From contig NC_007681.1 of assembly GCF_000012545.1 (NCBI RefSeq), forward strand, positions 990,001 through 1,022,000: a stretch of 32,000 bases of DNA. Reading direction: 5' to 3'. The stretch comes from Methanosphaera stadtmanae DSM 3091 (lineage in GTDB: Archaea > Methanobacteriota > Methanobacteria > Methanobacteriales > Methanobacteriaceae). Under the pieces are notes generated by a model. It worked only from the letters and a program-made list of their open reading frames with translations, had not been told where the DNA came from and ran no database searches. Below, piece after piece: positions 2,901-25,942 of this stretch. The translations under genes and the position numbers were made by a program. The stretch's first letter is position 1; every line of letters begins with the position of its first letter.

Positions 2901-2930
2901 ATTAACCTCCCTTAAATCAAGTTAATGATT

Positions 2931-3719
2931 TTATTTTATAATTGTACCTTTAACTTTTTGTCCTGATACTGCAAGTTTTATATTTCCAGGAGTTTCAGCA
3001 TTTATTATATGAGATTCTATACCATCCTCTGCTAAGTCTAGTAATTCTCGTATTTTACCTGCCATTCCCCCAGTTACATCGGCTTGATTTTCATTTTCTG
3101 TTAAAAGTAAATCTGTATCTTTTGTAACTATATCTATTAACTTTGCATCTGGATTTGTCTTTGGATTATCTGTATATATTCCATCCACATCTGATGATAG
3201 TATTACACGATTAGCTTTTAATTTCTTAGCTAGATATGTAATTATCTGATCTCCAGATAATATAGCGTATTTAAAATATTCATTTTGATCTAGTACTGCA
3301 TCACCATATAGTACTGGTACAAATCCATTGTCAATATATTTTTGAATGAGTTTTGTATCACATACACAGATTCGTTTTTGGTTTGTTTCTATAAATGATG
3401 AAGGTTTTATTCCTATTGCTGGAACTCCTTTTTCATGTAGTTTTTCACAAATTATGTAGTTTAATAGTTGTACTGATGCTTGTGTTCTACATACTCCTTC
3501 TAATTTATAGAGGTGATCGTTTACATTAGATATTACATCACCTATTCCAAATTTCTTTGCATATATATGTCCATATGATCCTGCTCCATGTACTATTACC
3601 ATGTCATCATTATATGCAGATACTTCTTGTGCTATACGATCTAAGTTAACTTCATCTATAGTAGGTTCTTGTGCATCTTTTTTTGTTATTGCACTTCCAC
3701 CTATTTTTAGTATTATCAT
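2931..3719 (-). CDS. ipk: Isopentenyl phosphate kinase (amino-acid-kinase fold)
   Basis: 262-aa ORF with IILKIGGSAITKK and VHGAGSYGH motifs of the AAK/IPK family. It sits between mvk and fni, as in the archaeal alternative mevalonate pathway. Confidence 0.85.
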   Translation of the reverse strand: MIILKIGGSAITKKDAQEPTIDEVNLDRIAQEVSAYNDDMVIVHGAGSYGHIYAKKFGIGDVISNVNDHLYKLEGVCRTQASVQLLNYIICEKLHEKGVPAIGIKPSSFIETNQKRICVCDTKLIQKYIDNGFVPVLYGDAVLDQNEYFKYAILSGDQIITYLAKKLKANRVILSSDVDGIYTDNPKTNPDAKLIDIVTKDTDLLLTENENQADVTGGMAGKIRELLDLAEDGIESHIINAETPGNIKLAVSGQKVKGTIIK

Positions 3720-3743
3720 ATAAATACCCTTTCTTTTTTTGTT

Positions 3744-4712
3744 TTAATTAATAATTTCAGCACTAACTCCAGTATCAGATTGTACACATTTAAATGTAGC
3801 ATAATCCTTACGTAATTGTTTATATATTTCATCGGAATTTTCTGGAGTGTATGCAATAATACATCCACCACCACCACTTCCTGTTAATTTAGAACCTTTT
3901 GCTCCATATTCACGTGCTTTATATACCATGTCTGATAATTCAGTAGTGTTAACACCAATAGCATCAAGTAATCCTTGATTAATATTCATTAAGTCTCCTA
4001 TTAATTCAGAATTACCTTTTTCAAGTGCTACTTTTGCATCAATTGCTATTTGTTCCATTGCTTTAAAAATATTTCCTACAATTGTTGGATATTTCTCATA
4101 TTTTAATCGTACTGATTCAACTAATTTTCCAGTATTACCACTGATTTCACAGTTAGAAACTATTAATGGTAGTTTCATATTAAAATCAATTCTATTTAAT
4201 TTAGAGTTTTCATCAATAAATATTATTCCACCATATGTACTCATAGATGTGTCAATTGGACTTGCAGCTCCCTGAATTTTAATTTCTATTTCACGAGCTG
4301 TTTGTGCTATTGTTTTTTTATCTATTTGTTTATTTACATATAAAGAAACTGCCTTTAATGTTGATACTGTTACTGCTGCTGATGATCCAAGTCCTGCTCC
4401 TAAATACATTTTAATATCTACTGTTAAGTCAAATCCTTTTTCAAATTCAAATAAGTTAATAACTTCATATATATAATCAGTAATCATCTTCTTTTGACTG
4501 TCTATTTTATAGTTAAGTTTTTTATTAACAAGTTGTGATTTTTTATAATAATCAATTAAGTCAAGTTTTACTGTTATGTTATCATCATTACGTGGAATTA
4601 ACTCTACATTAACTCCCCTATCTATTGCAACAGCTATTGCAGGCTTTTTATATACAACAGTATGTTCACCAAATAATATTATTTTTCCTGGTGCAAATGC
4701 CTTAATTTTCAT
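3744..4712 (-). CDS. mvk: Mevalonate kinase (GHMP kinase)
   Basis: 322-aa ORF with KIILFGEHTVVY and the GHMP motif GAGLGSSAA. GGAGG Shine-Dalgarno lies 8 nt upstream of the ATG. Confidence 0.9.
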   Translation of the reverse strand: MKIKAFAPGKIILFGEHTVVYKKPAIAVAIDRGVNVELIPRNDDNITVKLDLIDYYKKSQLVNKKLNYKIDSQKKMITDYIYEVINLFEFEKGFDLTVDIKMYLGAGLGSSAAVTVSTLKAVSLYVNKQIDKKTIAQTAREIEIKIQGAASPIDTSMSTYGGIIFIDENSKLNRIDFNMKLPLIVSNCEISGNTGKLVESVRLKYEKYPTIVGNIFKAMEQIAIDAKVALEKGNSELIGDLMNINQGLLDAIGVNTTELSDMVYKAREYGAKGSKLTGSGGGGCIIAYTPENSDEIYKQLRKDYATFKCVQSDTGVSAEIIN

Positions 4713-5173: not shown

Positions 5174-6043
5174 ATGGAAGTGAAAAATATTATGATAAGA
5201 AAACCTTCTGTAGCAGGATTATTTTATGAGTCAAACAAGTCTCTTCTTGAAGAAAATATTAAAAATATATTCAATAAAACAGGACAAAACATACCCACTA
5301 CACCTTCTAATACATATAAAACAAAAGCTGCCATAGTACCTCATGCTGGATATATCTATTCTGGTAAAACTGCCAGTTATGCATATGGTGATATTGCAAG
5401 AAGTGGTATTTGTGATACTGTTGTTATTATTGGACCAAATCATACAGGTTATGGTGATGATATATCACTTACAACAAGTAACACTTGGCAAACACCCATA
5501 GGGGATGTTTGTGTTGATAGTGAATTTAATAATGAATTAGAAAAAATAAATTCAAACATCACATTTAGTCCTGAAGCACATATAAAAGAACATTCCATTG
5601 AAGTTGAATTACCATTTCTACAGTACATCTCAAATATTCAAAAGAAGTCATTTAAAATAGTTCCAATTGTAATTACAAGACAACAAAAGAATTTCTGTGT
5701 AGAATTAGCACATAGTATTTATGATGTTTCAAAGAAATTAAATCGTAATATCATGGTTGTTGCAAGTACTGATTTGACTCATTATGAAAATGCTACTAGT
5801 GCTAAGAATAAGGATGAAAAAATATTAAAATCAATTGAAAATATGGATATTGATTCATTATTAAATAACATAAATAAATACAACATTACAATGTGTGGAT
5901 ATGGGCCAACAATAACTGCCATTATCTATTCAAAACTAGTAAATGCTAATAGGTCAATTATATTAAATTATAGTAATAGTGGTGAGGTTTATAATGATTA
6001 TGAATCTGTAGTAGGATATGCCTCAGCAGTAATAAAAAAATAG
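5174..6043 (+). CDS. MEMO1-family protein (AmmeMemoRadiSam system protein B-like)
   Basis: 289-aa ORF with AAIVPHAGYIYSG and other conserved His/Asp positions typical of the Memo/UPF0103 family. The likelier start is ATG 5192 (MIRKPSVAGLFY), which is preceded by GGAAGTGA. Confidence 0.8.
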   Translation: MEVKNIMIRKPSVAGLFYESNKSLLEENIKNIFNKTGQNIPTTPSNTYKTKAAIVPHAGYIYSGKTASYAYGDIARSGICDTVVIIGPNHTGYGDDISLTTSNTWQTPIGDVCVDSEFNNELEKINSNITFSPEAHIKEHSIEVELPFLQYISNIQKKSFKIVPIVITRQQKNFCVELAHSIYDVSKKLNRNIMVVASTDLTHYENATSAKNKDEKILKSIENMDIDSLLNNINKYNITMCGYGPTITAIIYSKLVNANRSIILNYSNSGEVYNDYESVVGYASAVIKK

Positions 6044-12453: not shown

Positions 12454-12752
12454 GCTAATTCTCCGTTTTAATTAAATTATATTTAAAAAAAATATCTAGA
12501 TTATTCTAATGTGTGTTGAAGTAATTTTTTTTATAAGAAAAAAATAAGCTTTGAATTTTATAATTAAATTAAAGATGAAATAATCTGAAAGTTTATTTAT
12601 TATATGTGTTAATCATATTCAGAAATAATCTAGTTAAAACAGTACTCTGTTTTATTTTTTGATTAAAATAATAAATAATATTGAATAAAAAAAAGTGATT
12701 TTTTTAATGAAATTTCAGATTATCAATTTTTGTTCTATAAAATAATTATAAG

Positions 12753-12836
<84 letters not shown>

Positions 12837-14203: not shown

Positions 14204-14365
14204 AAAAATATAATTCTATATTATATATTAGTATAGTAATATCTTATAATTCTTTATAATATAAAAATAAGTCTACATTATTATAATTAGTAATATTTTT
14301 CTATAAAAAAGATATAATATATAATAAATAAAAAAAATATACTAAGAAAAAAATCGTGATTTATT

Positions 14366-15577
14366 ATGCTAAAAACAGATGTAGTAGTTATTGGAGCAGG
14401 TCCTGCAGGATCTATGGCAGCAAAACATGCAGCACTAGGAGGGGCAAATGTAGTTTTAATAGACAAGAAATCAGAAATTGGAACTCCAAAAAGATGTGCA
14501 GAAGGTGTGTATGATGAAGGATTTAAATGGCTAAATATAGAACCTGATGAAAGATGGATAGCACAGCGTATATATGGTGCAACACTACACTCACCAGATG
14601 GAAATAGTTTTACAGTAACATCAGAAGATGTACCAGTACAAGGATTTATACTAGAGAGAAAAGTATTTGATAAACACATGGCAATGGATGCAGCACGTGC
14701 TGGTGCAAAGATAATGATAAAAACATTAGTAACTGATATTAAAAGAAATGAAAATGGATTCATACTATCATGTGATTCAATTGAAGGCACAATTGAAGTA
14801 GAAGCAAAAATAGCAATCTGTGCAGATGGACCAGAATCAATAATGGCAAAAAAATTAGGAATTAATTCAACAACACCACAAAACATGATGTCCTGTGCAC
14901 AATTTGAAATGTGTAATGTAGATTATAATGATGATGAAAAAATAGAATTCTACCTAGGACAAGATGTTGCTCTTAAAGGATATGCATGGATATTTCCAAA
15001 GGGAAATGGTGTTGCAAATGTAGGTCTTGGAGTTACAGGCAATACTGATAAAACAGCATATGAATATATAATGGATTTTATAGAAAAATGTCCTGCCACA
15101 AAGAATGCTCAACCAATAGAAATGAATATAGGTGGAGATCCTATAAATGGACTTATTGAAAAAATATACGATGATAATCTATTAATATGTGGAGATGCTG
15201 CAGGTCAAGTAAATCCAATAGAAGGAGGAGGAATTATTGAAGGAATGCTTGGTGGTATGGCTGCTGGAGATGTGGCAGCAAAGGCTATTAAAGAAGAAAA
15301 TTATTCAAAAGAAAGACTTCATGAATACTATGAAAAATACAGTGAACTTTCATTTAATTTAATAGAAACACTACCTGCTGCAAGAGATATTGTTTATTCA
15401 TTTACTGATGATGAATATAATAAAATAATAAGTGTAGCAAATACTATAGATTTAAAAAATATATCAAAACGTGATGTATTAAAAGTAGTATTTAAACTTC
15501 CACCAACACTAACAACAAAATTAATTAAATTACTTAAAATTGTATTTCCAAAACAAATGAAAAGTATATTGTTTTAG
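14366..15577 (+). CDS. Geranylgeranyl reductase family FAD-dependent oxidoreductase (digeranylgeranylglycerophospholipid reductase-like)
   Basis: 403-aa ORF with the dinucleotide-binding motif DVVVIGAGPAGS. LICGDAAGQVNPIEGGGI matches the GGR family signature region. Confidence 0.85.
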   Translation: MLKTDVVVIGAGPAGSMAAKHAALGGANVVLIDKKSEIGTPKRCAEGVYDEGFKWLNIEPDERWIAQRIYGATLHSPDGNSFTVTSEDVPVQGFILERKVFDKHMAMDAARAGAKIMIKTLVTDIKRNENGFILSCDSIEGTIEVEAKIAICADGPESIMAKKLGINSTTPQNMMSCAQFEMCNVDYNDDEKIEFYLGQDVALKGYAWIFPKGNGVANVGLGVTGNTDKTAYEYIMDFIEKCPATKNAQPIEMNIGGDPINGLIEKIYDDNLLICGDAAGQVNPIEGGGIIEGMLGGMAAGDVAAKAIKEENYSKERLHEYYEKYSELSFNLIETLPAARDIVYSFTDDEYNKIISVANTIDLKNISKRDVLKVVFKLPPTLTTKLIKLLKIVFPKQMKSILF

Positions 15578-15755: not shown

Positions 15756-16544
15756 CTATTTCTCACCATTATATGGATTTAATTCTCGTACCTCTTTAGG
15801 ATATTTTTTCAGCATACGATCCATTAGAGACATACTCTGTATTTGACCTACAAGAAACATGAACTTATTTTTCTCATCATGAAGTCCATTTAAGTCCCTT
15901 TGAAGTTTGTTACTTACTTCAACTGAATGTTTATAATCATTACGACTTGTGGTAATTTCCTTTTTCTGTCTTGTATTTTCACTTTCTAATCTATCTATAG
16001 ATGTGTTAAGATTATCTATTTGTTGTTGTAATTGTTTTATGGTTTTTTCATAATTAGCATTACCAGTATCAAGAATTTTATTTTCCTTTTCTAGGTTACT
16101 TATCTGTTTTTTAAGGTTAGTTATTTCATTATTATAATCCTTGTTTTCATGGGATGTTTTCTCATATCTTGCTTCCATATCTTCATGATTTGTTTGGATA
16201 CTTATGAGTTTTTCAGATAAGATTTTATTTTCATGTTCTAGTTGTTGTAATTGTTCCTTTGATTTGTTATCATTGTCTTGAATTGAATTTTTATAGTCAT
16301 TTAATTCTTGTTGAATATTTTTATTATCTTCAATTAATGACTTATTTTCCATAAGTAGTCTGTTATATTCCTTTGGATTTATATCTGATATATTATCGTT
16401 AGTATAATCTTTAGCAAATTGTTCAATAGTTGGACCTATATGTCCCTTGGATGTTCCATGTTCTGATTCTAATTTTTGAAGAAATGCACTCCAACCTTCT
16501 TCATCTTTAACTCTTATTGTAACAGTTTTTGCCATTTTTATCAA
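15756..16544 (-). CDS. Hypothetical protein: RHH-like N-terminal domain plus ~190-aa heptad-rich coiled coil
   Basis: 262-aa ORF. The track start at 16544 is TTG; ATG at 16535 (MAKTVTIRVKDEE...) is likelier. A TATA-like ATATTTATAG (rc of 16571-16580) lies about 35 nt upstream of that ATG. The N-terminus KTVTIRV / EEGWSAFLQKLESEH / GTS / IGPTIEQFAKDY fits a strand-helix-GxS/T-helix ribbon-helix-helix pattern. The rest is E/K/N/Q-rich coiled coil. I recognise no family. Confidence 0.7.
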   Translation of the reverse strand: MIKMAKTVTIRVKDEEGWSAFLQKLESEHGTSKGHIGPTIEQFAKDYTNDNISDINPKEYNRLLMENKSLIEDNKNIQQELNDYKNSIQDNDNKSKEQLQQLEHENKILSEKLISIQTNHEDMEARYEKTSHENKDYNNEITNLKKQISNLEKENKILDTGNANYEKTIKQLQQQIDNLNTSIDRLESENTRQKKEITTSRNDYKHSVEVSNKLQRDLNGLHDEKNKFMFLVGQIQSMSLMDRMLKKYPKEVRELNPYNGEK

Positions 16545-16695
16545 CTAAAAAAAAAACATTTTTTTTTATTCTATAAATATCCAATATGATCCATTAAATA
16601 AAATAGTATGTTCATATAATCATCTATTATTTTTATAATTGGTCATGTTATGGATTTCTTACTAAAATATTATATATCTTAATTTATTTAAAGAT

Positions 16696-17135
16696 TGTGT
16701 TACATTGTTTTATATGTTTTACGTGTTAAAATAGTCTATAATAGCTTATTAGATGTTTTTGGTATTTTCATGTTTTACATTGTTTTACATGTAAATCATA
16801 TGTTTTATATAATAATTAATCTGAAACTAATAATTACTCTAAAAATGAATTTATTGTTTTATATTGTTTTACATTAATTTTCTTTATTTTATGCATATAA
16901 ATGATTTTAAAGGATATTTCATTTACAGTATAAAACAATTGTTTTACATTGTTTTACATATAAATCATTGATAAAACATGATAATTATTGTTTTGTAAAT
17001 AATCACTAGAAAACACATACCTATGTTTTATATTGTTTTACATTAAAATAGCTTTATTTATGTATATACTCATAGATAAAGCTGTTTAAAAATATAGTAT
17101 AAAACAATTGTTTTACATGTTTTATATATAAAACA
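16696..17135 (+). repeat. Array of ~16 plus-oriented and 4 inverted copies of the 9-10 bp motif TGTTTTAYA(T), arranged in three tandem ~160-170 bp modules
   Basis: Exact TGTTTTACA/TGTTTTATA starts at 16706, 16771, 16781, 16801, 16855, 16865, 16940, 16950, 17024, 17034, 17109 and 17118. Variants start at 16696, 16715 and 16989. Inverted TATAAAACA starts at 16929, 17098 and 17127, with GATAAAACA at 16970. Many copies are head-to-tail doublets with exactly 10-bp spacing. Confidence 0.9.
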
Positions 17136-17168
17136 TTGAAAAAAACAATAAAAAAAATAAGAAGTTAA

Positions 17169-17360
17169 TTATATATACATACTACCTAATCCTAGCATAC
17201 CAGGAAAACCCATACCGCCACTTAAACTACTTCCAAGAATTATATAGCATATGATATGTAACACACCTATACTATATAACCAGAGTAGTATTATTATTTC
17301 AAGTATAATAAATAGTATAATGGATATTAATGAAGTAAGTAATATTTGTTTTATTGACAT
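17169..17360 (-). CDS. Small hydrophobic protein (two predicted TM helices, Gly/Met-rich C-terminus)
   Basis: 63-aa ORF. AGGAG Shine-Dalgarno lies 7 nt upstream of the ATG and 14 nt after the upstream ORF stop, suggesting translational coupling. The sequence MSIKQILLTSLISIILFIILEIIILLWLYSIGVLHIICYIILGSSLSGGMGFPGMLGLGSMYI is strongly hydrophobic. Confidence 0.55.
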   Translation of the reverse strand: MSIKQILLTSLISIILFIILEIIILLWLYSIGVLHIICYIILGSSLSGGMGFPGMLGLGSMYI

Positions 17361-17374
17361 AGATACTCCTAAAG

Positions 17375-17722
17375 TTATTTATATTCTATGATATGTGAAA
17401 GACATTTATATTCTCTTTTATGAAAATCAGTGAAATCATCACCTTTATATAGATTAAAGTACTTTTTTGTTGTGTCTGATATATACTTTCGTGACTCAAA
17501 TATAACTAGTTTTCCTAAACAATAGTTTTCAATTACAATATCATAACAATCTAGTTTTGGAACATAACATAGACTATAAATTAAATAATCAGATTTTAGT
17601 ATTGTTTGTTCAAATAAAACATCTTCAGTTTCATATAGTGTTTTAATATCATCTCTACCTACTTCTTGTTTATGCAAAAAAAATACACTCCTCAAAAAAT
17701 AATCATTATAAAGAAAATTCAT
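17375..17722 (-). CDS. Hypothetical protein, 115 aa, no recognisable family
   Basis: Uninterrupted ORF with a balanced, non-low-complexity composition (D/E/K/C/Y-rich). It is followed by the SD-coupled small ORF. No obvious SD of its own, so it may be leaderless or have a short leader. Confidence 0.5.
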   Translation of the reverse strand: MNFLYNDYFLRSVFFLHKQEVGRDDIKTLYETEDVLFEQTILKSDYLIYSLCYVPKLDCYDIVIENYCLGKLVIFESRKYISDTTKKYFNLYKGDDFTDFHKREYKCLSHIIEYK

Positions 17723-17753
17723 TCTTTAAAAAAAATGTTTCTACCTAATTTAT

Positions 17754-17860
17754 TGTTTTATTTATTATAATATTAAAAGATAATAACTATTTATAGAAAA
17801 AATATGTCCATAAAACACATATAAAACATTAAAAAACAAGTATAAAACAATATAAAACAT
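17754..17860 (-). repeat. Inverted-orientation module of the TGTTTTAYA motif array
   Basis: TATAAAACA on the + strand at 17820, 17841 and 17851; CATAAAACA at 17809. These form two doublets with 10-bp spacing. One plus-oriented partial copy TGTTTTAT lies at 17754. The reverse complement of 17843-17859 (TGTTTTATATTGTTTTA) is identical to 16855-16871 and 17024-17040. Confidence 0.85.
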
Positions 17861-17964
17861 TAGCAAAAATCTATAAAATATCAACTATTTTTATAAATAT
17901 ATTCAAAAGAAGAAAAGTTATTTTTTCATGTCGTTATCACTTGAGACATACTGATTTTTTTTAT

Positions 17965-18228
17965 TCAGGAGGAATATCCAGTTAAAGTAGTTATAGAATA
18001 TAAACAACACACACAAAAAAACATTATGACAATCACATCCATATTCATAAAGTTAGTTTTAGTATTTAAGTAATCTAGTATCATAAAATATATTTCTATT
18101 AATTTTTTAAATTCTCTATCAGTTAAAACAGATAATAATTTAATATTTTGATTAAATATATAAAATAAAGATAAGTAGTATTTTTCATATTCTGTAGAAT
18201 ATATGGATGTATAAACTAATATTTTCAC
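17965..18228 (-). CDS. Doubtful hypothetical ORF (87 aa)
   Basis: GTG start placed immediately after the T8/T9 terminator tracts of nudC, with no SD or promoter room. The composition is Y/I/L/F/N/K-rich, as expected for a random AT-rich ORF. Listed only because it is open. Confidence 0.2.
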   Translation of the reverse strand: MKILVYTSIYSTEYEKYYLSLFYIFNQNIKLLSVLTDREFKKLIEIYFMILDYLNTKTNFMNMDVIVIMFFCVCCLYSITTLTGYSS

Positions 18229-18233
18229 TGTTT

Positions 18234-18254
18234 AAAAAAAAAGGATAAAAAAAA
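18234..18254 (-). terminator. Oligo-T terminator downstream of nudC
   Basis: On the minus strand the stop is followed by C-T8-ATCC-T9 (forward A-runs 18247-18254 and 18234-18242). Archaeal transcription terminates at oligo-T tracts. Confidence 0.55.
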
Positions 18255-18255
18255 G

Positions 18256-19056
18256 TTAATGTTTTTTTAGAAAGTCATTTATTAACCAGGATGCTATACT
18301 AATATTTGATTCTGGAACATCAATATCCTCTTTATTAAACCATTTAGCCTCTAATATTTCATCACCATCAACCTTTATTTCTCCACCATCATAATCAGCA
18401 CAAAAACCTAGCATAAGTGAATTAGGAAATGGCCATGATTGACTTTTTTGGTATTGTATATTCTTAATATCTATTCCAACTTCCTCTTTTACTTCCCTTC
18501 TAACTGCATCTTCTATTGATTCACCAGCCTCTACAAATCCTGCAATTAATGCATATCTTATCTTTGTATAGTAACTGTGTCGTGCCATTAATAGTTTTCC
18601 ATTCTTATTTATAGCCACAATAATTGCTGGTGCTATACGTGTATAATGCATCTGTCCACATTTAGGACATAGAAGCATCATATCTTTTTTATCAAGTACT
18701 GTTTTTGTTCCACATCTTCCACAGTACTGATATGAACTATACCAATCATTTACTAAAACAGCACGTGTTGCTATTTGATATAATAATGGATCTATATTAT
18801 AAATCTCAATTAAGGGTATAAACTCTATATCATCACTTGTACTAACTACAAATGCATCCTTGTTTTTATATGTACCAATATATAGTACATAGTTTATATT
18901 AAAATCTATTTTATTTAATGTTGTTAAAAAAAGATGATTATCATCTAAATATACTTCTCTTTTAGAATTAATTATAAAGTAATATGCTTTATCATCAGTT
19001 CTATAATCTTGACTAAAATCTATTTTATAATCATTATACATTGAACTTTCTATCAT
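18256..19056 (-). CDS. nudC: NAD(H) diphosphatase, NudC-type Nudix hydrolase (potential NAD-RNA decapping enzyme)
   Basis: 266-aa ORF with a zinc ribbon (CGRCG...CPKCG) and Nudix box GFVEAGESIEDAVRREVKEEVGI, which fits Gx5Ex7REUxEExGU. The downstream SQSWPFPNS matches the NADH pyrophosphatase signature SQPWPFPxS. Confidence 0.85.
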   Translation of the reverse strand: MIESSMYNDYKIDFSQDYRTDDKAYYFIINSKREVYLDDNHLFLTTLNKIDFNINYVLYIGTYKNKDAFVVSTSDDIEFIPLIEIYNIDPLLYQIATRAVLVNDWYSSYQYCGRCGTKTVLDKKDMMLLCPKCGQMHYTRIAPAIIVAINKNGKLLMARHSYYTKIRYALIAGFVEAGESIEDAVRREVKEEVGIDIKNIQYQKSQSWPFPNSLMLGFCADYDGGEIKVDGDEILEAKWFNKEDIDVPESNISIASWLINDFLKKH

Positions 19057-25258: not shown

Positions 25259-25942
25259 TTAATCGATTACTCCAAGAGCTTTAAGGTCTTTTTCACTTGA
25301 TTTTACACTTGATAATTGTTTAAGTGCATCGAATACTGCGCCTGCAAAGTTAATTGTAGTTTGTGTTTGTCCACTACACATGGACCATACATCTGCTATA
25401 CCTGCTAATGAAAGAATAGTTTTTCCTACATTACCAATTGCAAGACCTACACCTGCTGGTGCTGGAATTAAAGTTGCACTTACTGAACTCATTTTACCTT
25501 CAATTTTGAAAGGTACTGTGTGTCTTCTTCCACATCCACAACCCCAGTCACCACAACCTCTTCGTACTTTAATAAGGTTGTATTTAGCTGCATCAACAGC
25601 TTTTCTTATTGCAGGACCTACTTCTTGAGATTTACCTTGACCAAGTCCCACATATCCATTTCTGTTTCCAACTGCTACTATTACTCTAAAGTTAACTTTT
25701 CTACCAGATTTGTGCATTCTTTGAACAAGGTTAACATCCATAACTTCTTCTTCAAGATCTGGTAATAGTGCGTCAACAATTTCTAATTCCATAATAGGAA
25801 GGCCTTTATCTAATATTTGATCAATATCAGTTATTTCGCCATCTTTAACTTTACGTCCAAGTTCTGTTTTTGGTTCCCAATTCTCAATATTGAACTTGTT
25901 AGTATTGTTCTTGTTGTTTGATCTATTTGATCTTTTGCTCAT
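25259..25942 (-). CDS. rps5: 30S ribosomal protein S5 (uS5)
   Basis: 227-aa ORF with S5 dsRBD and C-terminal domain motifs ([20 protein letters not shown]). It has a 4-nt overlap with rpl18. Confidence 0.95.

Follow-up and report, generated by a model that had tools for sequence, protein, structure and literature searches.

What is a dense array of one short DNA word doing between two blocks of ribosomal-protein genes in the chromosome of Methanosphaera stadtmanae DSM 3091? The question is raised by a stretch of 32,000 nucleotides (NC_007681.1, positions 990,001 to 1,022,000; hereafter the window, numbered from its first letter), in which a preliminary description had noticed about 24 copies of TGTTTTAYA(T) within 1.2 kb and had likened them to plasmid iterons, parC-type centromeres and archaeal origin recognition boxes (ORB and mini-ORB). 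We propose, with a probability of roughly 0.55, that this array would be the cis half, and the 259-aa coiled-coil protein encoded next to it the trans half, of a two-part module for tethering or partitioning DNA that works without a nucleoside triphosphatase (NTPase) and probably regulates itself. Among the evidence for this proposal are the conservation of the motifs relative to their spacers and the recurrence of comparable arrays of different motifs upstream of homologous genes in other lineages.

We counted 20 exact copies of TGTTTTAYA in the window, whereas dinucleotide-preserving shuffles gave 3.18 ± 1.78 and at most 8; the chance expectation is therefore about three and not about one per window as had been estimated by hand. 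Of these copies, 18 fall within 16706-17859 (1.15 kb), 12 on the plus strand and six on the minus strand, exactly as counted before, and the remaining two are found at 5315 and 12266. Allowing one mismatch, we found 32 matches in 16600-17900 against 4.5 ± 2.1 in shuffles of the same stretch. About 10 one-mismatch copies are interspersed among the exact ones, and the true copy number is about 24-28, in agreement with the earlier figure. The extended consensus of the motif is (A)WTGTTTTAYA(T), and its density reaches 17/kb in each of the two array kilobases against 0-7/kb elsewhere, as compared over the 32-kb window and the strain contigs of this genome. The elements in question are as follows.

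16706, 16771, 16781, 16801, 16855, 16865, 16940, 16950, 17024, 17034, 17109, 17118, plus strand: exact copies of TGTTTTAYA (n = 12)
16929, 17098, 17127, 17820, 17841, 17851, minus strand: exact copies of TGTTTTAYA (n = 6)
16696..17135, mostly plus strand: left (main) array, about 22 copies (15 exact and about seven with one mismatch), directly upstream of the gene for the 259-aa protein
17809..17880, minus strand: right array, six copies at spacings of 10-11 (and 21) bp
16771..17151, plus strand: 169-bp tandem unit, 2.3 copies at 75% identity (Tandem Repeats Finder)
15756..16535, minus strand: gene for the 259-aa protein (ABC57263 / Q2NFZ0; 262 aa if TTG at 16544 is the start)

The left array comprises six clusters, each with two to five sites, spaced 9-11 bp within a cluster and about 75-85 bp between clusters, and each 169-bp unit contains two doublet clusters. 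Besides direct repeats, it includes head-to-head pairs (16929/16940 and 17098/17109) and a tail-to-tail pair (17118/17127). The right array is located just upstream of the TATA-like sequence CTATAAATA and of an open reading frame (ORF) of 100 or 115 aa. The exact 10-bp doublets described previously are present at five pairs, i.e., 16771/16781, 16855/16865, 16940/16950, 17024/17034 and 17841/17851, but the sixth, 17809/17820, is spaced 11 bp, and 17809 is a one-mismatch copy. Likewise, the suggested helical phasing holds in part: the plus-strand copies give a Rayleigh R of 0.82-0.94 at 10.56 bp because the doublets recur every 84.5 bp (8 x 10.56), but a period of 9.38 bp (84.5/9) gives an R just as high, so that a location of the copies on one helical face is consistent with the data and not uniquely shown. 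Both arrays are themselves intergenic; the 670 bp between them, which had been included in the 1.2 kb regarded as non-coding, carries GenBank-annotated ORFs of 63 aa and 100/115 aa.

When the 169-bp units are aligned, 45 of 45 motif columns are identical, compared with 70 of the 124 other columns (Fisher P = 1e-9). At one matching position the site is inverted between units (16801, plus strand, TGTTTTATA; 16970, minus strand, GATAAAACA), and since equivalent positions carry opposite orientations, this suggests that the orientation of a site is probably not critical. A similar pattern is seen within the species, where we compared six sequences, i.e., the window and the strain contigs L001-L005: of the 19 substitutions that distinguish them in the left array, a single one affects a motif column (P = 0.011), and this is a C->T change at the degenerate Y position, which leaves the consensus intact. 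The locus is nearly identical and fixed in all five strain contigs, although in one of them (L004) the right array is shorter by exactly one 10-bp copy (17841-17850), from which we conclude that copy number there changes by slippage. Judging from the motif and spacer columns and from the strain substitutions, the array motifs appear to be under selection, and the original impression of a protein-binding type of array seems well founded.

A word-indexed search matched the 259-aa protein solely within the species; its first 60 residues, used as the query of an exhaustive HMMER search, brought up distant relatives, which are 35-54% identical over the N-terminus and share a conserved C-terminus separated from it by a coiled coil of variable length. 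Three long matches of the N-terminal search (P0201, P0203 and P0206) are spurious, being Ig or ankyrin repeat proteins. The family, for which our comparisons rest on six members, is characterized by the N-terminal pattern T.TIR.KN..W..F...E..GTS.G.IG.T.E and the C-terminal pattern RNDYKH...NKLQ...MSL..R.L.KYP.EIKEL. Except in the member L199, an array was found upstream of the gene in each relative with available upstream DNA, each with its own motif, as listed below; L196 and L197 are metagenome contigs.

Methanosphaera sp. WGK6 (L195): GTAYACA, 11 of 19 copies in 0.45 kb upstream of the gene (6.3 expected per 16.8-kb locus)
L196: GTAYACA, 18 of 18 copies in 0.8 kb upstream of the gene
L197: TRTAATATR, 16 of 21 copies in 0.76 kb upstream of the gene
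Plasmid pNP174 (strain ISO3-F5), 324-aa homologue (found by tblastn): ATCWTACC, 32 copies against 1.2 expected

All four arrays contain 10-12-bp doublets with tens of bp of unconserved spacer between them; the doublet nearest the family gene is about 25-45 bp before its start codon in WGK6 and L196. These two members also share the same N-terminal strand, KTATIRFK, together with the same motif, while other strands go with other motifs. The WGK6 gene is located in a different neighbourhood, beside an OB-fold gene and a DNA ligase gene. Conversely, the orthologous NudC neighbourhoods in four other Methanosphaera/Methanobacteriaceae lineages (NudC identity 65-76%; one of them is the complete genome of strain ISO3-F5) have no array and a different gene content. 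From these comparisons, the array is seen to track the gene and not the chromosomal position, and the neighbouring protein, which had been put forward as a 262-aa candidate partner, belongs to a family linked to arrays in five lineages. No NTPase, Rep or Orc1 gene is found beside the family gene at any locus examined. In L199 the family gene is beside a TerS-like gene (phrog_6299, 4e-5), and another homologue is beside a phage-type endonuclease gene (phrog_4225, 1.8e-89). Small VapB-like genes of 45-48 aa (PF02697, sub-threshold; with a TIR(V/I) strand) are found near two family members (L199 389-1185 and L200 6963-7109), and the succession of such a gene and the TerS-like gene in L199 suggests a viral or proviral setting for some of the members.

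The plasmid-borne member deserves a closer description. pNP174 is a 174-kb Methanosphaera plasmid that encodes MCM, PriS, a histone, XerA, a BREX-type defence cluster and group II introns; neither Orc1/Cdc6 nor ParA is annotated on it (L201-L204), and the two 'ATP-binding' candidates are AAA_14/DUF4143 proteins. Upstream of its family gene, which lies 10 kb from priS, 0.65 kb of DNA contains 24 of the 26 plasmid copies of ATCTTACC, arranged in 11-bp runs. The plasmid carries in addition a second motif, TGTGCTACA (TGT-N3-ACA), which is two bases off the M. stadtmanae motif and is represented by 77 TGTKCYACA copies in at least eight intergenic clusters across the plasmid (L201-L204). Its density peaks at 112-121 kb, in the vicinity of the family gene, the histone gene and priS, and a group of 18 copies begins 0.3 kb downstream of the family gene, between convergent genes (L200 9140-9840, i.e., 120.1-120.7 kb). 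The TGTGCTACA clusters may represent the origin of the plasmid, or else binding sites for a regulator that acts throughout it.

In the AlphaFold2 model of the 259-aa protein, residues 1-11 are extended and are followed by helices at 12-26 and 37-45 and by a single helix at 54-244 with a predicted local distance difference test score (pLDDT) >90. This helix of about 190 residues is predicted to form a coiled coil, and beyond it the protein ends in the motif RNDYKH...MSL..R.L.KYP.E(I/V)(K/R)EL. The order of elements at the N-terminus of the model, strand-helix-turn (G-T-S)-helix, is that of a ribbon-helix-helix protein. The monomer model of this domain has a pLDDT of only 45-72; a ribbon-helix-helix strand pairs solely in the dimer. 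Searches of the whole protein against Pfam, PHROGs, NCBIfam and PADLOC yielded nothing but coiled-coil matches, all of them below the cut-offs; these, with similarities to SMC, Rad50 and JetC-arm proteins, were rejected as compositional. The putative core promoter of the gene was read from the sequence as follows, and the nearest array copies are about 110-140 bp further upstream of its putative TATA box.

16565..16590, minus strand: putative core promoter of the 259-aa gene; the TATA-like ATTTATAG precedes the ATG by about 45 nt

We envisage that dimers formed by the N-terminal domain would recognise single 9-bp sites, and that neighbouring dimers on the 10-11-bp doublets would bind cooperatively on the same face of the helix. 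The coiled coil and the conserved C-terminus could then gather the clusters, spaced about 84 bp apart, into one large nucleoprotein complex, which would tether or position DNA in a centromere-like fashion without an NTPase of its own; the same complex may dampen the transcription of neighbouring genes. That the 259-aa protein binds the sites, does so cooperatively and acts in tethering or partition is what we infer. Self-regulation by array and protein is likely, since the right array abuts a TATA-like box and the last doublet in WGK6 and L196 is just before the start codon. Because one homologue is on pNP174 and others are in virus-like contexts, we suggest that the module derives from mobile elements of Methanosphaera and has become fixed in the M. 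stadtmanae chromosome.

Partition or tethering without an NTPase is the closest parallel among known systems, since no NTPase, Rep or Orc1 gene is a neighbour, one homologue is plasmid-borne, and the contexts of others are virus-like. NTPase-less single-protein partition has been described as 'type IV' (PMC5016525), and pSK1 Par, RacA and RocS each consist of an N-terminal DNA-binding domain, a central coiled coil and a C-terminal module, with cis repeats and no NTPase (PMC11500499). The Methanosphaera family shares with the staphylococcal pSK1 Par, RacA (ram sites, Bacillus subtilis) and RocS (Streptococcus pneumoniae) this domain order, the cis repeats beside the gene and the lack of an NTPase partner. 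On the other hand, Par, RacA and RocS have a MerR-type winged helix-turn-helix whereas a strand-helix-helix is predicted here; Par and RocS have DUF536 and an amphipathic helix whereas the Methanosphaera family matches neither DUF536 (PF04394) nor any other Pfam family; and the Methanosphaera arrays (20-40 sites over 0.45-0.9 kb) are much larger than the sites of the three bacterial proteins and are found in an archaeal host. Since neither a MerR-type domain nor DUF536 is matched and the predicted topology is not winged helix-turn-helix, the family is best described, by analogy, as an analogue of type IV partition and not as a member of the pSK1 Par/RacA/RocS group.

A second comparison is with the parC/ParR (type II) and ParG/omega (type Ib) systems, which likewise have short direct and inverted sites, about one per helical turn, upstream of the gene. 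In the parC/ParR, ParG and omega systems the array also serves as an operator for autoregulation. The likeness to parC and iterons suggested earlier pointed in the right direction as far as the repeats are concerned: the repeats of about 10-11 bp upstream of the gene that mark the parC of ParMRC are present here as doublets and triplets, and as 11-bp runs on pNP174. It did not extend to the genes, as there is neither an NTPase gene nor a Rep gene. While type II and Ib systems have a ParM or ParA motor, none is encoded in the window or beside the homologues; the 259-aa protein, with its coiled coil of about 190 residues, is 3-5 times longer than their centromere-binding proteins; and type II parC is one contiguous run, whereas the M. 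stadtmanae clusters are about 84 bp apart and contiguous 11-bp runs are seen on pNP174 only. The beta-alpha-alpha topology of the DNA-binding domain of ribbon-helix-helix partition proteins is documented (PMC5016525). Without an NTPase gene, membership of the array and the 259-aa gene in ParMRC was ruled out. The array is also similar to sopC of the F plasmid in having a higher-order tandem repeat, with one short site per unit and free spacers; sopC is bound by the ParB-type SopB, which works with the SopA ATPase (PMC2910045), and neither a SopB-type nor a SopA-type protein is found at the M. stadtmanae array.

A further comparison is with ORB and mini-ORB repeats. The likeness lies in multiple short AT-rich repeats in both orientations in an AT-rich region, cooperative protein binding being predicted here, but the consensus is different, no orc1/cdc6 gene adjoins the array, and related genomes do not conserve it. 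The core TTCC...GAA of ORBs, for which TTCCAGTGGAACT is a Pyrococcus example (PMC1904270), is missing from the motif, and in the Methanobacteriales oriC has been placed next to cdc6-1 (PMC2812497); the origin likeness proposed at first is not supported. The pattern TTACANTTGAAA, which together with TTACACTTGAAA we take to be the mini-ORB of Methanothermobacter, has 4 matches in the window, where 3.9 are expected, and the array holds none of these. A tandem 12-mer, TTTTACACTTGA (x2.1, 25289-25313), which resembles the presumed mini-ORB TTACACTTGAAA, occurs once, within the coding sequence of ribosomal protein S5, and is most likely due to chance. An iteron-type plasmid origin is likewise not supported, there being no Rep-like gene and the neighbours being the coiled-coil protein and two orphan small ORFs. 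Cortez et al. predicted a dif site of M. stadtmanae with flanking imperfect inverted repeats (PMC2958812).

The array is within a variable insert between two conserved, co-oriented archaeal ribosomal-protein blocks, in the order geranylgeranyl reductase, 259-aa gene, left array, 63-aa and 100/115-aa ORFs, right array, NudC and a DUF4013 membrane protein. The five proteins around it are exact matches to GenBank ABC57262-ABC57265 and WP_048059734. The surrounding features are the following.

6-12.4 kb, minus strand: S13-S4-S11-RpoD-L18e-L13-S9, enolase and S2 genes
12752-12836: tRNA-Ser, the only RNA gene in the window (Rfam and tRNA scans)
14366-15577, plus strand: geranylgeranyl reductase gene
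17169..17360, minus strand: orphan hydrophobic ORF of 63 aa (ABC57264), annotated in GenBank
17375..17722, minus strand: orphan ORF of 100 aa (ATG at 17677, annotated as ABC57265) or 115 aa, between the two arrays, with no family match
18256-19056, minus strand: NudC gene
20.8-32 kb, minus strand: SecY-adk-cmk-L14e and the spc ribosomal operon

The GC content drops to 20-22% over 16-18 kb, compared with about 30% elsewhere in the window. Pfam scans of the main ORFs revealed no Orc1/Cdc6, Rep, ParA, MCM or primase gene in the 32 kb, bearing out the earlier remark on the first three, and no transposase, integrase or terminase gene was found in the window. Since the Rfam and tRNA scans matched tRNA-Ser alone, an RNA gene in the array region was also ruled out; a scan of the window for sigma-70 promoters and terminators was uninformative, the host being archaeal. 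In the strain contig L003 a 1-bp deletion (window position 17260) disrupts the 63-aa ORF, which may therefore be dispensable, and the small neighbouring ORFs were dismissed as parts of a conserved module as they are not conserved between loci. A strain-variable indel of about 20-30 bp was noted in the A-rich tract directly 3' of the NudC stop codon (18235-18247). A 199-aa ORF (14287-14886, minus strand) antisense to the geranylgeranyl reductase gene is of low complexity, has no family match and is almost certainly not a gene.

Wider searches returned little beyond the locus itself. BLASTN of 16560-18255 against phage and plasmid collections gave no match, nor did tblastn of the 259-aa protein against phages. 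In genome contigs, the matches listed for the 19-nt doublet were single chance matches in unrelated bacteria, and the only one from Methanosphaera among them (L065) is inside a coding region. Scanning viral contigs for the motif yielded chance singles and simple 10-bp satellites only, and a metagenome scan for a doublet followed after 40-70 nt by the motif recovered the same locus (L188) and unrelated arrays. A literature search for the motif words in a limited collection gave irrelevant matches only. Two of the arrays encountered in metagenomes are worth recording. L179, a plasmid-like contig with 25% GC, has TGTTTTACA doublets including a palindrome at 4330-4440, about 450 bp upstream of two small genes (2915-3879) whose N-termini read like ribbon-helix-helix; this array is probably a convergence on the same site logic. 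L181, an unrelated contig, has at 1005-1105 four tandem 26-bp units of ATATAAAACAATATAAAACATTCTTC just upstream of an ORF, an iteron-like arrangement using the same word.

Several observations weigh against the two-part module. DNA binding by the 259-aa protein is only predicted, and its N-terminal domain has no Pfam match (0 hits), gives E > 0.7 in a profile search of the PDB, and reaches a probability of at most 20% in hhalign comparisons with CopG, Arc, Mnt and omega and E > 8 in Foldseek. The family member L199 is without an adjacent array. On pNP174 the motif TGTGCTACA is closer to the M. stadtmanae motif than is ATCWTACC, so there are two candidate arrays for the plasmid protein. Simple occlusion of the promoter of the 259-aa gene is unlikely, as the nearest motif appears to be about 110-140 bp from the putative TATA box. 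Furthermore, a lone chromosomal site far from any shown origin would be an unusual place for a chromosomal centromere.

The same facts may be explained in other ways. If the array were a pure transcriptional operator, the repeats would be bound, by the neighbouring protein or by some other factor, only to regulate the 259-aa gene and the operon of the 100/115-aa and 63-aa ORFs. The right array indeed ends 10-20 bp before the TATA-like box of that small-ORF operon, the position of the last doublet in WGK6 and L196 fits as well, and proteins binding short tandem sites are often repressors. We nevertheless think an operator and nothing else improbable, since 20-40 sites over 0.45-0.9 kb far exceed what an operator needs, the main array halts well short of the putative promoter, a simple repressor does not account for the long coiled coil and the conserved C-terminus, and the homologue with the largest array is plasmid-borne. 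A replication origin, in the form of iterons of an integrated plasmid or virus or of a secondary chromosomal origin, with opposed repeats flanking an AT-rich unwinding region, would fit the GC content of 17-21%, the mutual inversion of the left and right arrays, the presence of 9-mers in both orientations as in DnaA boxes or mini-ORBs, and the location of the pNP174 homologue near priS among dense TGTGCTACA clusters. We consider it quite unlikely in view of the 32 kb without an Orc1/Cdc6, Rep, primase or MCM gene, a motif without the ORB core (PMC1904270) and an ORB-like pattern that is not enriched, and the absence of the array from the orthologous loci of relatives in an order whose oriC is beside cdc6-1 (PMC2812497). 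In addition, the 670 bp between the arrays carries ORFs, and the ribosomal-protein operons on both sides are co-oriented, so that forks leaving an origin here would meet one of the two head-on. For the copy on pNP174, an origin may still be the right reading.

Two further possibilities attribute the array to a decayed element or to no function at all, and we regard both as very improbable. According to the former, a recombinase or terminase of a decayed element with small ORFs would have bound the inverted arrays as its subterminal sites (pac/cos-like, or transposon ends); the arrays do flank 0.67 kb of orphan ORFs with a GC content below that of the surroundings, and one family member is beside a TerS-like gene. 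But the window has no transposase, integrase or terminase gene, neither a target-site duplication nor flanking repeats of the att type were detected, all five strain contigs share the fixed, near-identical locus, and the arrays of WGK6, L196, L197 and pNP174 form a one-sided block upstream of the gene. According to the latter, slippage and unequal crossing-over in AT-rich intergenic DNA would have produced a non-functional satellite. The 169-bp higher-order tandem structure, the difference of one 10-bp unit in one strain and the unrelated simple 10-bp tandem arrays with the same word in L182, L186 and L192 are what such a process would leave behind. It would hardly keep the motifs perfectly while the spacers fall to 56% identity, spare the motifs from within-species substitutions, preserve a site through inversion, or provide homologous genes in other lineages with analogous arrays of different motifs.

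To our knowledge, chromosome and plasmid segregation in the Methanobacteriales is largely unknown, and genetic tools are few for M. stadtmanae, an archaeon of the human gut. If the array and the 259-aa gene were no more than what a mobile element left behind, still regulating itself, the result would be a modest one. The pairing of gene and array recurs on a Methanosphaera plasmid, and the two-part module proposed here may represent an undescribed archaeal DNA-tethering or partition module. A broader reading, which we offer tentatively and hold to be possible but less than an even bet, is that Methanosphaera chromosomes, pNP174 and virus-like elements share an undescribed and independently arisen one-protein-one-array system of segregation or tethering, with a new DNA-binding domain, a long coiled coil, a C-terminal anchor and phased lineage-specific sites, as an archaeal counterpart of type IV partition and of RacA/RocS. 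The module, if real, would extend the short list of segregation systems known from archaea and could serve as a stability cassette for Methanosphaera and Methanobrevibacter vectors. In addition, at least four motifs that go with four N-terminal strands constitute a natural series of proteins and motifs, in which the DNA-recognition rules of the new domain would be testable.

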